This document shows, piece by piece, positions 26,832-31,501 of a stretch of DNA of 64,000 nt; positions within the stretch are counted from its first letter, which is position 1, and the number at the start of each line of letters is the position of its first letter. The notes beneath the pieces are model-generated. The model did not search any database and had not been told where the DNA came from. It saw nothing but the letters and a program-made list of their open reading frames with translations. Location: positions 384,001 through 448,000 of the forward strand of contig JAHPZH010000002.1 of assembly GCA_019058315.1 (NCBI GenBank). Direction: 5' to 3'. The DNA comes from Candidatus Helarchaeota archaeon. GTDB taxonomy: Archaea; Asgardarchaeota; Lokiarchaeia; Helarchaeales; RDOG01. A program made the translations under genes and the position numbers.

Positions 26832-28286
26832 ATGAGTAAAGTAAAATGGGAAACCGAATTAAAAAGAGAACAAATTGAAAAGACTTGTATCAGAATAACC
26901 AGAAATTTGGTTGGGGAAGAAAAGAAAAGAGAATATGATGCATGTATCAATAAATTGAACTCAATCCTAGACAAAAACAGAATTAATGAAGAATTCGAAA
27001 ATCTAAAGCAAGAAGATTATGAAACTAGTTGTCTATCTATAATAGACCAATTGAATGTTAAAAATCCTAATAAATTGAAAAATAATTGTATAAATAAATT
27101 TAAAATTCAAATTAGTGACCCTATTTGGATAGAAAAAATGACTGAATATAAAAAAACTTTTCTATTTAATGAATTAAATGAATTAAATACTATGGTTGAT
27201 TTAGAAAAATATGAACATCAAAATAAGCTATTTATGAAGCAAATATTAGCTAGTGATGTAAAGAAAAACTTACAAATTTACTTTAAAGATATTAAATTGA
27301 AGGATGATCCTGATTTTTTAACGAGAAAAAAATCCATTTCATATAAACTAAATAAAGAATATTTATCAGAAAATATAGAGAAACAAGAAAAACTGAGACT
27401 TTTAGCAACTTATTTATTAACTGATGGGAGTCTATACAAGGATGGCAACAACTACAAATTAGATTTCACTAATAAATCTATTATTCTTATTGAAAAATTC
27501 ATGGATATACTAAAAGAATTTATACCTAATGCGCATTTCAATTTTACAAAACATAAGGTCCCAACAGGAATTAGTTATCAAGTCAAAGTTCCTTCTAATG
27601 AACTAGCTGAGTTATTATTTGAAATTTCACCATCCTACAAGACAAAACCCTATAAAAACCTTTCAGAATGTGAAAATGAATATAAAAAAGAACTTTGTGT
27701 AAAATGGAAGGTGAAAGACAAACAAATGGGATATAAAGAGAAATATTTCGCACCTGCAACTTACCGAAATATAATGGATAAAGTATCTGTTACAGATATT
27801 CTCAGAATAATTTTTGATAATGAAGGTAGTGTTGGTTTAAGCATTCGAAAAGATGGAAGAACAGATAAAAAATTGTCAGTTACTTGTCTACATCCTGGTT
27901 TAGCTGAAGAAATAAGACAAATGTTAATTGCAGTAGGAATTCACACAAATCCAATTCCTGAAAATTATAAAGGAGATTTTGAAATTTTATCTGAATATTA
28001 TGAAACTTTTCGTGATAAAATAGGATTTACTAGAGGAGTAACAAAAGAAAAGGGAAAATATTTAATTGGAAAAAATAAATCTGATATTTTAGATATTTTT
28101 ATTCTAATTTCTTGTATGCAAAAGGATAAGGGACTAATTTTAAAAAATATACCGAATTTAGAAAAAAAACTGGAGTCTATAGTAACCGAATATGAAGAAG
28201 GTGTAAACCAAGGTATTTCTAAAAACTTGTTATTAAAAAAGATTTCAGAAAAGTTAACTATTTTTCAAGATAATCGTAATAAATAG
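26832..28286 (+). CDS. Free-standing double-motif LAGLIDADG endonuclease-like protein
   Basis: Motif 1 LLATYLLTDGSLY followed by LDFTNKS; motif 2 ILRIIFDNEGSVG; later FRDKIGF; no intein splice-junction motifs or host gene. Confidence 0.78.
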   Translation: MSKVKWETELKREQIEKTCIRITRNLVGEEKKREYDACINKLNSILDKNRINEEFENLKQEDYETSCLSIIDQLNVKNPNKLKNNCINKFKIQISDPIWIEKMTEYKKTFLFNELNELNTMVDLEKYEHQNKLFMKQILASDVKKNLQIYFKDIKLKDDPDFLTRKKSISYKLNKEYLSENIEKQEKLRLLATYLLTDGSLYKDGNNYKLDFTNKSIILIEKFMDILKEFIPNAHFNFTKHKVPTGISYQVKVPSNELAELLFEISPSYKTKPYKNLSECENEYKKELCVKWKVKDKQMGYKEKYFAPATYRNIMDKVSVTDILRIIFDNEGSVGLSIRKDGRTDKKLSVTCLHPGLAEEIRQMLIAVGIHTNPIPENYKGDFEILSEYYETFRDKIGFTRGVTKEKGKYLIGKNKSDILDIFILISCMQKDKGLILKNIPNLEKKLESIVTEYEEGVNQGISKNLLLKKISEKLTIFQDNRNK

Positions 28287-28294
28287 AAAAAGAG

Positions 28295-28477
28295 TGGGAC
28301 CGCCGGGCTTCGATCCCGGGACTTTACCCATGAGAGACGTTTATTCTCTCATTTCTGGCTTTCTCCGAGGAGAATTGTAAAGAGAGTGGTCAAGCTCTGA
28401 AATACAATTGTAAATCTTATAAGGCCAGCACTCTTTTTGGGAAGTTTTAGACTCTAACCAAGCTGAGTCACGGTCCC
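28295..28477 (-). tRNA. tRNA-Ile(UAU) with three introns (20a/21: 28435-28455; 37/38: 28361-28417; 44/45: 28324-28353)
   Basis: Removing three BHB-like introns gives a 75-nt cloverleaf: GGGACCG UG ACUC AGCUUGGUUA GAGU G CUGGC CUUAUAA GCCAG AAGUC CCGGG AUCGAAG CCCGG CGGUCCC A, with all four stems fully paired. Confidence 0.85.
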
Positions 28478-28534
28478 ATTAATTGTAGGTATCCATTGAT
28501 ATTATTGCAAATAATTAATGACTTTTATCTTTTT

Positions 28535-31501
28535 TTATTTTTCCGATTTTTTGAAATAGAATTGAATATCCACGTTTTCTATTGACAATTTACCCGAAAC
28601 GAAACCTTTTTTGACTTTATCTGGAGCTGATTTTACTATTTGAATTGTTTGAGCTCTTGTAATTGAAGTTATCATATCCTGAAACGTTGTTAATTTATCT
28701 AAAACGTCTTTATCATTACAAACCACTATTAATTCTATAGTTTCCTTCACATGGAATTTGTTTTTCTTCCGATTTTGCTGAATATGTCTTGTTAGCTCCC
28801 TGACCATATGTTCTGCTTTTAGTTCATCTTTTACTTCAGTTTCGAGTCCAACTGAGCACTTAGGTCGTTCTTTGAATTTTATTGTCTTCTTTTTCGGGGC
28901 TGATTTTACAACCTCTGTAGTTTTTACATTCGCTTGATTATTTATTATATCTAATAAGTTATCAATTTTATTCATTTTTTCCTTGGGAACAATTATTGCC
29001 TTAAGCAAAGGATAACGTAGTTTTATTCCTTCTTCTTGGCGAATGGATAAAAGAGATTCCACAATATGTTTAACCAGTTCCATTGATTCTTCCAATTCAG
29101 GTTTAATAAGTTTGGTATTTGTTTTTGGCCATTTAAGTAATTGGATGCTTTCTGGAGTTTTAGTTTCAGCAGGTCGAACTAAATGTTGGTAGAGTTCTTC
29201 AGATAAAAATGGTATGGCGGGTGTACTAAGTACGATAAGAGTACGGAGGACTTCATATAACGTTGCCATAGCTGCAGAATCTTGATTATTTATACGATCT
29301 CTGATTATTCTCACGTACCAATGACTAAGGTCGCTCATATAAAAATCCTGTAATAATTTCGGAATTTTTGGTAAATTATACGTTTCAAACTCTTCTGTCA
29401 CGTTTTTGATTAAAGAATTTAATCTTGAAAGAAGCCAAGTATCTTCAATTTGAAGTTTCATTTTACTAAGATTATGTTTTGTTGGATCAAAGTCTGCAAT
29501 TTTTAGAAACGTAGTAGCATAAACATAGACATTATATATAACATTTAGCATACGATGAGCATCTTTTAATTCAGTCCATACGAATTTCATATCTTCTCCG
29601 GGTGCTGTTGATTTAACGGAATAGAATCTGAAAGCTTCTGAGCCATACTTTTCTATTACTTCTTCTGGTGCTACGACATTTCCTATAGATTTACTCATAG
29701 GTCGTCCTTCTTCATCCATTGTAAATCCATGCATATATACTGCCTCGTAAGGACGAGTTTCTGACGATACAATACTCGAAGACATCAAAGTATTAAACCA
29801 ACCACGAATTTGGTCCTTTCCTTCTAATATGAAATCTGCTTTTTTCCAGTTATCAAAGTCATTTTTTCCATAAACAACCATATTTGTAGACCACATACCG
29901 GATCCTGAATCTAACCAAACATCCAATACATCTGGAATTCGTTTTTTAGTTCCACCGCATTTGCATTTCCAAGTAACTTCGTCTATCCAAGGTCTGTGGA
30001 GATCTTCAGGAACTTTATTAGAAAGCTTCTTCAGTTCATCTACTGACCCTATAATTGTAACATCGTCACATTTATCACATTCCCAAATTGGCAGCGGAGT
30101 TCCCCAATATCTTTGACGGGAAATACACCAGTCCCAAAGATTCGAAATCCAGTTGTGAAACCAACCACCTGCCCATTGAGGTTGCCAATAGACTTTTTTA
30201 TTTTCACTTATCATGAGTTCATGCAGTACACTCATTTTAAAGAACCACTGTTCAATATTTCGATAGATGAGTGGTGTTTTACACCTCCAGCAGTGAGCAT
30301 ACTCATGTTTTAATGTACCTAGATTTAACAATGTTCCTTTTTTCTTCAAATCATCCAATATTTTTTTGTTTGCATCTTTAACATAGAGTCCTTTGTATTT
30401 TCCTCCTTCTTCGGTAAAGTTCCCTGCAGAATCAAGAGGTGAAAAAGCTGGCACTTTGTATTTTAAACCAACTATGTAATCCTCTTGTCCATGCCCAGGA
30501 GCAGAATGAACTAATCCAGTGCCTCCTTTATCTACAGTAACATATTCTTCAGATAAAATAACTGTATGAACATTTGGATTTCCTTTTTCATATTCTAAAT
30601 TTTTAGGAACTTCTTCAGCTAATGGAGGAATGTATTTTAATCCTTCTAATTTTTCTCCTAAAAATTCTTCAATTATTTTAAAATCTTTGCCCAATAATCC
30701 TTGAATTACTGCTGTAGACAATGCTTTAGAAATTATCCAGACTTCATTACCAACTTTCGCTCGAATGTAGTTATATGTAGGATTCACCATAACTGCTAAA
30801 TTAGCAGGAAGTGTCCAAGGCGTTGTTGTAAATATTAGTAAATACTCATTTTTTTTATCTTTCACCTTAAATTTTAGAAATAAGGAGATATCTTCAATAT
30901 TATAATATTCAAATTCATGTTTAGCAAGCGCCGTTTCACATCTAGGGCATGTATTTAACGGTCGAGCACCTTTATACAAGTATCCATTATCCCATGCCTT
31001 TCGAATAGCCCACCATATTCCTTCTATATAGCTATTAAAGACTGTTTCGTAAGGATGTTCCCAATCATAAAAGCACGCCAGCCTTTTAAACTGTTCATTC
31101 ATTTTCCATAAATTTGTTTCTGCAAATTCACGACATTTTTTAATAAAATTTTCTAGACCAAATGCTTCTATTTCCTTTTTATTAGATATTTCTAATTCTT
31201 TTTCCATTAAAACTTCAATAGGTAATCCGTGCATATCATATCCTGGATTTACTTTTACATAATGACCTGTCATGCTTTTATAGCGGAGTACATAATCTTT
31301 CAAGACCTTATTCCAAGCAGTACCTAAGTGAATTGCTCCTGTTGTATAGGGAGGACCGTCAATAAATTTCCATTCAGGATCATTTTGTTCCAAATTCTTT
31401 TTCCAAATTTTTTCGAAGATTTTATTCTTTTCCCAGAATTTTAGAATTTTATCTTCCATCTCTTTAAATACAATTTTTTTTGGCAGTTCTTTTATTGGCA
31501 T
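28535..31501 (-). CDS. ileS: Isoleucyl-tRNA synthetase (archaeal/eukaryal type)
   Basis: DGPPYTTGAIHLGT (HIGH), GYDMHGLPIE, TTTPWTLPAN, GTGLVHSAPGHG, WCISRQRYWG, EGKDQIRGWF, PMSKS. Confidence 0.97.
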   Translation of the reverse strand: MPIKELPKKIVFKEMEDKILKFWEKNKIFEKIWKKNLEQNDPEWKFIDGPPYTTGAIHLGTAWNKVLKDYVLRYKSMTGHYVKVNPGYDMHGLPIEVLMEKELEISNKKEIEAFGLENFIKKCREFAETNLWKMNEQFKRLACFYDWEHPYETVFNSYIEGIWWAIRKAWDNGYLYKGARPLNTCPRCETALAKHEFEYYNIEDISLFLKFKVKDKKNEYLLIFTTTPWTLPANLAVMVNPTYNYIRAKVGNEVWIISKALSTAVIQGLLGKDFKIIEEFLGEKLEGLKYIPPLAEEVPKNLEYEKGNPNVHTVILSEEYVTVDKGGTGLVHSAPGHGQEDYIVGLKYKVPAFSPLDSAGNFTEEGGKYKGLYVKDANKKILDDLKKKGTLLNLGTLKHEYAHCWRCKTPLIYRNIEQWFFKMSVLHELMISENKKVYWQPQWAGGWFHNWISNLWDWCISRQRYWGTPLPIWECDKCDDVTIIGSVDELKKLSNKVPEDLHRPWIDEVTWKCKCGGTKKRIPDVLDVWLDSGSGMWSTNMVVYGKNDFDNWKKADFILEGKDQIRGWFNTLMSSSIVSSETRPYEAVYMHGFTMDEEGRPMSKSIGNVVAPEEVIEKYGSEAFRFYSVKSTAPGEDMKFVWTELKDAHRMLNVIYNVYVYATTFLKIADFDPTKHNLSKMKLQIEDTWLLSRLNSLIKNVTEEFETYNLPKIPKLLQDFYMSDLSHWYVRIIRDRINNQDSAAMATLYEVLRTLIVLSTPAIPFLSEELYQHLVRPAETKTPESIQLLKWPKTNTKLIKPELEESMELVKHIVESLLSIRQEEGIKLRYPLLKAIIVPKEKMNKIDNLLDIINNQANVKTTEVVKSAPKKKTIKFKERPKCSVGLETEVKDELKAEHMVRELTRHIQQNRKKNKFHVKETIELIVVCNDKDVLDKLTTFQDMITSITRAQTIQIVKSAPDKVKKGFVSGKLSIENVDIQFYFKKSEK

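Follow-up and report, generated by a model that had tools for sequence, protein, structure and literature searches.

A three-intron tRNA-Ile(UAU) gene downstream of ileS in a Helarchaeota archaeon and the probable decoding of AUA without agmatidine in an Asgard class

Most archaea read the AUA codon by an agmatidine-modified tRNA-Ile2(CAU), which is made by TiaS. A gene that very probably serves the same codon in another way, a tRNA-Ile with a UAU anticodon and three introns, lies at 28295-28477 on the minus strand of a 64,000-nt stretch of contig JAHPZH010000002.1 from a Candidatus Helarchaeota archaeon (this whole stretch is called the window below), close behind the isoleucyl-tRNA synthetase (IleRS) gene ileS. 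Decoding by UAU without TiaS is known from publications on Nanoarchaeum and Korarchaeum (PMC6000648, PMC8450103) and on ARMAN (PMC3239211). The tRNA-Ile3 of Nanoarchaeum equitans, Candidatus Korarchaeum cryptofilum and ARMAN-2, -4 and -5 is likewise an Ile tRNA with the anticodon UAU, and these genomes lack both TiaS and tRNA-Ile2(CAU). The UAU genes of Korarchaeum and ARMAN-2 also bear introns, that of ARMAN-2 at the canonical position 37/38, and the Korarchaeum gene, like the one described here, is most similar to the organism's own tRNA-Ile(GAU). Compared with these archaea, the present case differs in its Asgard host, in two extra non-canonical introns (D-loop and variable region), in its adjacency to ileS, and in that the trait is class-wide rather than confined to single small-genome lineages.

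Intron-crowded tRNA genes have been described in Asgard archaea as well, namely in Atabeyarchaeia and Freyarchaeia (PMC11291895) and in a census of 90 genomes (bioRxiv 10.64898/2026.10.13.758758), so that the statement in a sequence-only reading of this window that multi-intron tRNAs are best known from Thermoproteales was overstated. Those genes resemble the present one in having several bulge-helix-bulge (BHB) introns each, many of them non-canonical in position and frequently placed in the D-arm, and in being overlooked by standard software, and their hosts share the possession of two paralogues of the splicing endonuclease EndA. Neither report mentions tRNA-Ile(UAU), TiaS or agmatidine, or AUA decoding, and no literature joining agmatidine or TiaS with Asgard archaea was found among the matches listed.

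Two further systems invite comparison. Pus1 of yeast needs the intron of tRNA-Ile(UAU) to form pseudouridine at positions 34 and 36, and this intron also blocks the Elp-dependent modification to ncm5U34 (PMC6582322); the red alga Cyanidioschyzon merolae has a tRNA-Ile(UAU) whose three introns are distributed over D-arm, anticodon arm and T-arm (PMC9602550). The eukaryotic system and the present one have in common the UAU anticodon, an anticodon-pairing intron that is always kept and the presence of an Elp3 orthologue; they differ in that no second Pus1-type paralogue is seen here and that splicing is assigned to an archaeal EndA, which reads BHB motifs. Common descent of the two is not shown, because about half of the sampled Asgard genomes have TiaS. 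In the bacterium Mycoplasma mobile, which has lost the C34-modifying enzyme, a UAU anticodon likewise serves AUA, but its tRNA-Ile(UAU) has no intron and carries an unmodified U34 (PMC3575796). Its IleRS is adapted through a specific Arg in the bacterial-type C-terminal domain, a domain that the archaeal/eukaryotic-type IleRS encoded in the window does not have. Neither the decoding strategy nor the intron load is thus new among archaea; what is less expected, and eukaryote-like, is that the anticodon-adjacent intron is strictly retained across the class.

When three inserts of 21, 57 and 30 nt are taken out of the 183-nt locus, a tRNA of 75 nt remains, in agreement with the three-intron gene that had been proposed from the letters of the window. 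ARAGORN calls the spliced 75-mer tRNA-Ile(tat); every one of the four stems is paired, and the anticodon loop reads CU-UAU-AA. The parts of the gene are the following.

28456..28477, minus strand: exon 1, with the acceptor 5′ strand GGGACCG, U8, G9, the D-stem 5′ strand and the D-loop through U20a
28435..28455, minus strand: intron 1, 21 nt, at D-loop position 20a/21, with a strict BHB
28418..28434, minus strand: exon 2, with A21, the D-stem 3′ strand, G26, the anticodon-stem strand CUGGC and the loop from C32 to A37
28421-28419, minus strand: the anticodon UAU, inside exon 2, with the same letters in contigs from independent runs
28361..28417, minus strand: intron 2, 57 nt, at the canonical position 37/38, with a relaxed BHB, homologous to the intron of a second genus of the family (genome G001)
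28354..28360, minus strand: exon 3, with A38, the anticodon-stem 3′ strand GCCAG and A44
28324..28353, minus strand: intron 3, 30 nt, at variable-region position 44/45, with a relaxed BHB
28295..28323, minus strand: exon 4, with A45 to C48, the T-arm CCGGG-AUCGAAG-CCCGG, the acceptor 3′ strand CGGUCCC and A73
28287..28291, minus strand: a run of five T that begins 4 nt past the discriminator, probably an oligo-T terminator of archaeal type

Read along the minus strand from 28477 to 28295, the gene starts with GGGACCG and ends with CGGTCCCA; CCA is not encoded. The UAU anticodon is genomically encoded in a 7-nt loop, flanked by U33 and A37, and the usual tertiary partners of the spliced tRNA are present (U8-A14, G15-C48, G18G19 and G26-A44), together with the discriminator A73. 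G+C content reaches 61% in the exons against about 30% in the genome. The 183-nt precursor folds with z = -3.99, none of 200 shuffles folding as well; in its minimum-energy structure the acceptor stem persists, as do the anticodon stem that encloses intron 2 and the hairpin of intron 3. ARAGORN and Rfam give no call at the locus in the raw window, and ARAGORN run over the whole genome with its intron option misses it too; silence on the raw locus is expected because the gene has three inserts. Standard tRNA finders would therefore score this genome as one without an AUA decoder. As an observation apart, the T-loop AUCGAAG (28306-28312) has A in place of U at position 54, and an A54 T-loop is also found in two Ala tRNAs of the genome (C6:72218-72322 and C10:16537-16670, where C numbers denote contigs) and in the UAU orthologues of genomes G017, G235 and G032.

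Each insert is bounded by a BHB site. The geometry was scored by a script against a null of random junction pairs with the same lengths in the same window, in which three of four central pairs plus a flanking helix arise in about 4.8% of trials and four of four in 0.7%. Intron 1 has a complete central helix (4/4, UUGG/CCAA) with 3 bp in the inner and 1 bp in the outer helix. Intron 2 has three of four central pairs with one A-G, 2 inner bp and 5 outer bp, the latter being the anticodon stem, and intron 3 also has three of four with one A-G, an inner hairpin of 8 bp and no outer helix. This scoring bears out the earlier description of intron 1 as strict and introns 2 and 3 as relaxed with an A-G mismatch, and the junctions chosen there are the best BHB for each intron among the placements that yield an identical mature RNA. 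The scores stand well above those of the null. No CAT occurs in the 57-nt intron for alternative splicing to move into the anticodon, and no box C/D motifs (RUGAUGA, CUGA) were seen in it by eye.

The demand for such a tRNA is high. In 2345 long open reading frames, AUA occurs 34.6 times per 1000 codons, makes up 34% of the Ile codons and ranks as the eighth commonest codon; since it is among the most used codons of this A+T-rich genome, its decoding is central to the organism's translation. TiaS, for which a genome search had been suggested from the sequence alone, was not found: the Pfam model PF08489 (TiaS_FLD) has no match in the genome and matches four of four archaeal control genomes, and a four-domain Asgard TiaS protein (from G075) used as a query yields only a fragment at E = 0.008. 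TilS gives no match above the cut-off in the genome either. In a sample of the phylum, TiaS was found in 111 of 201 genomes and in no sampled member of several families; in the class of the window, it was found in none of 40 genomes of family f4 and none of three of family f5, many of these genomes being 98-100% complete. By this sampling, the class appears to be without TiaS and would therefore be unable to make agmatidine-modified tRNA-Ile2(CAU).

Three tRNAs with a CAU anticodon were found in the genome, one of initiator type, one of elongator type with the acceptor strand GCCGAAG and one initiator-like copy in an array on contig 3, and none of them resembles the Ile tRNAs. In contrast to these, the organism's own tRNA-Ile(GAU) (C5:118689-118814, two introns) has an acceptor stem GGGACCG/CGGUCCC and a T-stem CCGGG/CCCGG identical to those of the UAU gene. 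The A73 and the acceptor and T stems shared with tRNA-Ile(GAU) are suggestive of an Ile identity of the UAU tRNA body. Many other tRNA genes of the genome have non-canonical or multiple introns, among them three Ala genes; multi-intron tRNA genes being common, a gene with three introns is normal for this genome, in which ARAGORN counts 26 tRNAs without its intron option and 40 with it.

The CAU genes have features of their own. The initiator tRNA-Met (C5:113830-114020, plus strand) shows three G-C pairs in the anticodon stem and an encoded CCA, with introns apparently in the D-arm, at 37/38 and inside the T-arm. The elongator-type CAU tRNA (C6:124830-125070, minus strand; acceptor stem GCCGAAG/CUUCGGC) apparently holds about five inserts, and two more multi-intron tRNA genes lie downstream of it within the same 650 nt. 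The array with the initiator-like copy (C3:627500-631800) is dense, with about 25 co-oriented, divergent-looking tRNA genes of lower G+C, and could be part of a mobile element or a virus.

The pattern used to survey the class joins the 3′ half of the D-arm to an anticodon stem of any 5 nt and to CUUAUA. The pattern stops at A37, so that the search is not conditioned on the presence of an intron. It was matched in 64 of 101 genomes of the class, compared with 8 of 101 for a reversed control, and 29 of the 30 loci that were fetched are tRNA-Ile(UAU); in the phylum sample, the same pattern occurs in 32 of 43 genomes of this class. Tabulated by script, the 43 parsed loci fall into 14 types by acceptor stem, five by anticodon stem and seven by T stem, and every stem is fully paired. 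Stems that are so diverse and yet fully paired indicate abundant compensatory change in the orthologues, the co-variation being read from these scripted stem tables rather than from a formal covariation count on a spliced alignment. In the TiaS-positive families, the few matches to the pattern are about as frequent as those to the reversed control, and the strings they match are unlike the anticodon arms of tRNAs. No match was obtained in TiaS-negative families outside the class (f6, f15, f16, f19 and f24), for which the pattern is probably unsuited.

Other searches were of less use. A first, 15-nt pattern had five matches in TiaS-positive families, none of which is a tRNA when read locus by locus, and was too specific. 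A pattern with a gap of 40-70 nt is circular as to the presence of the intron; its matches in G005 and G210 were false, and it was used only for finding orthologues. BLAST of the locus against 40 relatives returned only A+T-rich chance matches and the 3′ exons of the window genome's own Ile(GAU) and Ala tRNAs.

The introns of the orthologues differ in their constancy. In G001, the 37/38 intron is homologous in sequence to intron 2 of the window, and the other two introns are sited differently, at another D-loop position and at T-loop position 58/59. Across the class, the D-loop, variable-region and T-loop introns of the UAU genes are present or absent by genus, whereas an insert of 44-57 nt that separates A37 from the anticodon stem's 3′ strand occurs in 29 of 29 UAU loci; with two genes of family f1, whose D-loop introns put them beyond the reach of the pattern, the range becomes 44-62 nt. 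A perfect central BHB helix of 4 bp, formed with nucleotides of the anticodon loop, is present in 37 of about 40 distinct orthologues. As an isoacceptor control, the same pattern ending in CUGAUA was used for tRNA-Ile(GAU): 25 of 28 true loci have no anticodon-loop intron and three have one, and inclusion of G000's own gene gives four of 29 with an intron. Both within the gene and between the isoacceptors, this contrast points to selection for keeping the 37/38 intron in the UAU tRNA.

Some orthologues deserve separate mention. Genome G234 of family f5 has two different tRNA-Ile(UAU) genes (L061 and L067); their acceptor stems are unrelated, and each has an intron at 37/38. In the f4 orthologues (L078-L112), the 37/38 introns share a hairpin, GGACA-(N)ACA...UGUCC, and the 3′ end AGUAAA. 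A reading of this hairpin as an H/ACA guide was rejected as a misfit, the ACA being located in the loop.

A gene of this kind would need a splicing endonuclease of broad specificity, as had been pointed out from the sequence, and a two-subunit EndA with the crenarchaeal loop lysine is indeed present. The two EndA paralogues of the genome, of 184 and 201 aa, both match PF01974 and PF02778, with an N-terminal and a catalytic-type domain in each, and are 27% identical to each other. The 184-aa protein is closest to the catalytic alpha subunits of crenarchaeal heterotetramers (157 bits with 3P1Z_B of A. pernix). Its alignment to this subunit is gapless, places IRKPK opposite VEKPR, so that K44 of A. 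pernix corresponds to K41, and includes the catalytic stretch GxDFxVY...DHAPF...RKKF. The 201-aa protein has NPSKF where its paralogue has DHAPF, and the catalytic His is absent. Judged from these alignments, the endonuclease is an (alpha-beta)2 enzyme with an L1 (Crenarchaea-specific) loop. TACK and Asgard archaea are known to have this type, to which the cleavage of relaxed BHB motifs has been linked, the lysine of the L1 loop conferring the broad specificity (PMC5829648). No sequence difference from the known (alpha-beta)2 L1-loop enzymes (3P1Z, 3AJV and 2ZYZ) is evident, and there are two paralogues in both. Of the enzymes that could modify the anticodon, the TruA/Pus1 family is represented by one PF01416 gene (C7:120085-120390), as in ordinary archaea, and an Elp3 orthologue is present (763 bits, cut-off 350).

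The host genome amounts to 5.79 Mb in 12 contigs and is 94% complete with 6.6% contamination. The surroundings of the gene in the window are as follows.

28535..31501, minus strand: ileS, isoleucyl-tRNA synthetase, 988 aa (TIGR00392, 894.8 bits, cut-off 621.4)
28478..28534, minus strand: the spacer between ileS and the tRNA gene, 57 nt, A+T-rich, which holds AATAATAT about 22-29 nt upstream of the tRNA 5′ end
26832-28286, plus strand: a convergent 484-aa open reading frame that stops 8 nt from the tRNA 3′ end, with no NCBIfam match

The TIGR00392 match and the end of the ileS stop codon at 28535 confirm that the tRNA gene lies 57 nt downstream of ileS, as the sequence-only reading had it. The AATAATAT stretch may be a TATA box, a weak inference in a genome of 30% G+C. 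The adjacency of ileS and tRNA-Ile(UAU) recurs in G001, and no UAU tRNA was found in the ileS flanks of 22 genomes from other families of the class, which leaves the linkage restricted to two genera, both in the family of the window. Contigs from two other studies are identical to the locus, X2 over 28200-28558, which covers the whole gene, and X3 over 28397-28609, which includes the anticodon; no insert-free form of the DNA was seen among them. A C-to-T assembly error at the anticodon, the possibility raised earlier that UAU stands for CAU, is thereby excluded as far as these contigs show.

The locus is thus very probably a functional gene for a tRNA-Ile(UAU) that reads AUA in an Asgard archaeon of a TiaS-less class, and this tRNA is most likely the organism's AUA decoder. 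In the proposed course of events, a promoter of its own or read-through from ileS would give rise to the 183-nt precursor, EndA would cleave both 3-nt bulges at each of the three BHB motifs, an RtcB-type ligase would unite the four exons, CCA would then be added, and the neighbouring IleRS would charge the 75-nt tRNA. The 37/38 intron would pair with nucleotides of the anticodon and, to go by the comparative pattern, be kept by selection, most likely because U34 (and U36) would have either to be modified, or to be shielded from the resident Elp3-type U34 modification, while the anticodon is paired in the precursor, as in yeast. Either role, intron-guided modification or shielding of U34, is possible. 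The eukaryote-like route to AUA that the sequence-only reading had suggested therefore stands in part: TiaS was not found and the 37/38 intron is kept in all orthologues examined, but the strategy is not new for archaea.

Several points weigh against this interpretation. The scans for CAU tRNAs need an intact anticodon arm and are not exhaustive in a genome whose tRNA genes carry up to about five introns, and its incompleteness and contamination limit the inventory further. The central helices of introns 2 and 3 are imperfect. The intron counts of the UAU and GAU genes come from related genomes and are not independent events, and the pattern behind this contrast misses genes with D-loop introns. 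With a single gene of the TruA/Pus1 family, a dedicated Pus1-like enzyme is not evident. Splicing, the mature anticodon and its modifications are predicted from DNA, and the listed runs that match the locus include no RNA run.

The strongest competing explanation accepts the gene as functional and denies its 37/38 intron any role in anticodon modification: U34 would be unmodified as in M. mobile, the tRNA body, IleRS and the ribosome would discriminate AUA from AUG, and the intron would be old and simply not lost. This is possible, but we consider it somewhat unlikely. The unmodified U34 of the M. mobile tRNA-Ile(UAU) provides a precedent (PMC3575796), only one TruA/Pus1-family gene is at hand, anticodon-loop introns are common in the genome anyway, and the orthologues are related, so that one ancestral intron could explain all 29. 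An idle intron accords poorly, on the other hand, with the variation by genus of the D-loop, variable-region and T-loop introns of the same gene while the 37/38 intron is never lost, with the lack of an intron in 25 of 28 tRNA-Ile(GAU) loci, and with the anticodon-pairing central helix being perfect in nearly all distinct orthologues.

Two other explanations concern the gene itself. A tRNA-Ile2(CAU) could have been missed together with an unrecognised C34-modifying enzyme, which would make the UAU tRNA redundant or minor. Genes that ARAGORN finds so much more readily with its intron option are hard to find in general, the genome is 6% short of complete, and the CAU tRNA at C6 (~124830-125070), with about five introns, is not rigorously typed as Met; but the acceptor stem of that CAU tRNA is unlike those of both Ile tRNAs, neither the Pfam model nor the Asgard TiaS protein finds TiaS and TilS stays below the cut-off, TiaS is absent from each of the 43 class members sampled, of which many are 98-100% complete, and the UAU gene is conserved class-wide. 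It is accordingly very improbable that the codon is served in that way. The notion that the locus is a decaying pseudogene, a chance look-alike of a tRNA or a product of an assembly error with T34 for C is close to refuted: the failure of standard finders to call it and the mismatch in two of the three BHB motifs would fit such an origin, whereas the fully paired cloverleaf, the identical contigs from independent runs, the orthologues with compensatory changes that all read TAT and the lack of a CAT within the 57-nt intron contradict it.

The preferred interpretation, a functional tRNA-Ile(UAU) that decodes AUA, adds a eukaryote-close lineage to the short published list of archaea that replace the agmatidine route by a UAU tRNA. 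Its class-wide distribution and the strict retention of the 37/38 intron are its most notable parts: one intron that is never lost while its neighbours and the GAU sister vary is a pattern shared with yeast, where it reflects the intron-dependent modification of the anticodon. Eukaryote-style AUA decoding, with a UAU tRNA whose obligatory anticodon-pairing intron governs U34/U36, might even have existed already in Asgard archaea, at least in the whole of Lokiarchaeia sensu lato, and may be ancestral rather than convergent, a proposal that we regard as doubtful at present. If it is true, these Asgard genes would be a prokaryotic model for intron-dependent tRNA modification. Whether archaeal tRNA introns can act in decoding fidelity becomes a testable question through the comparative data.

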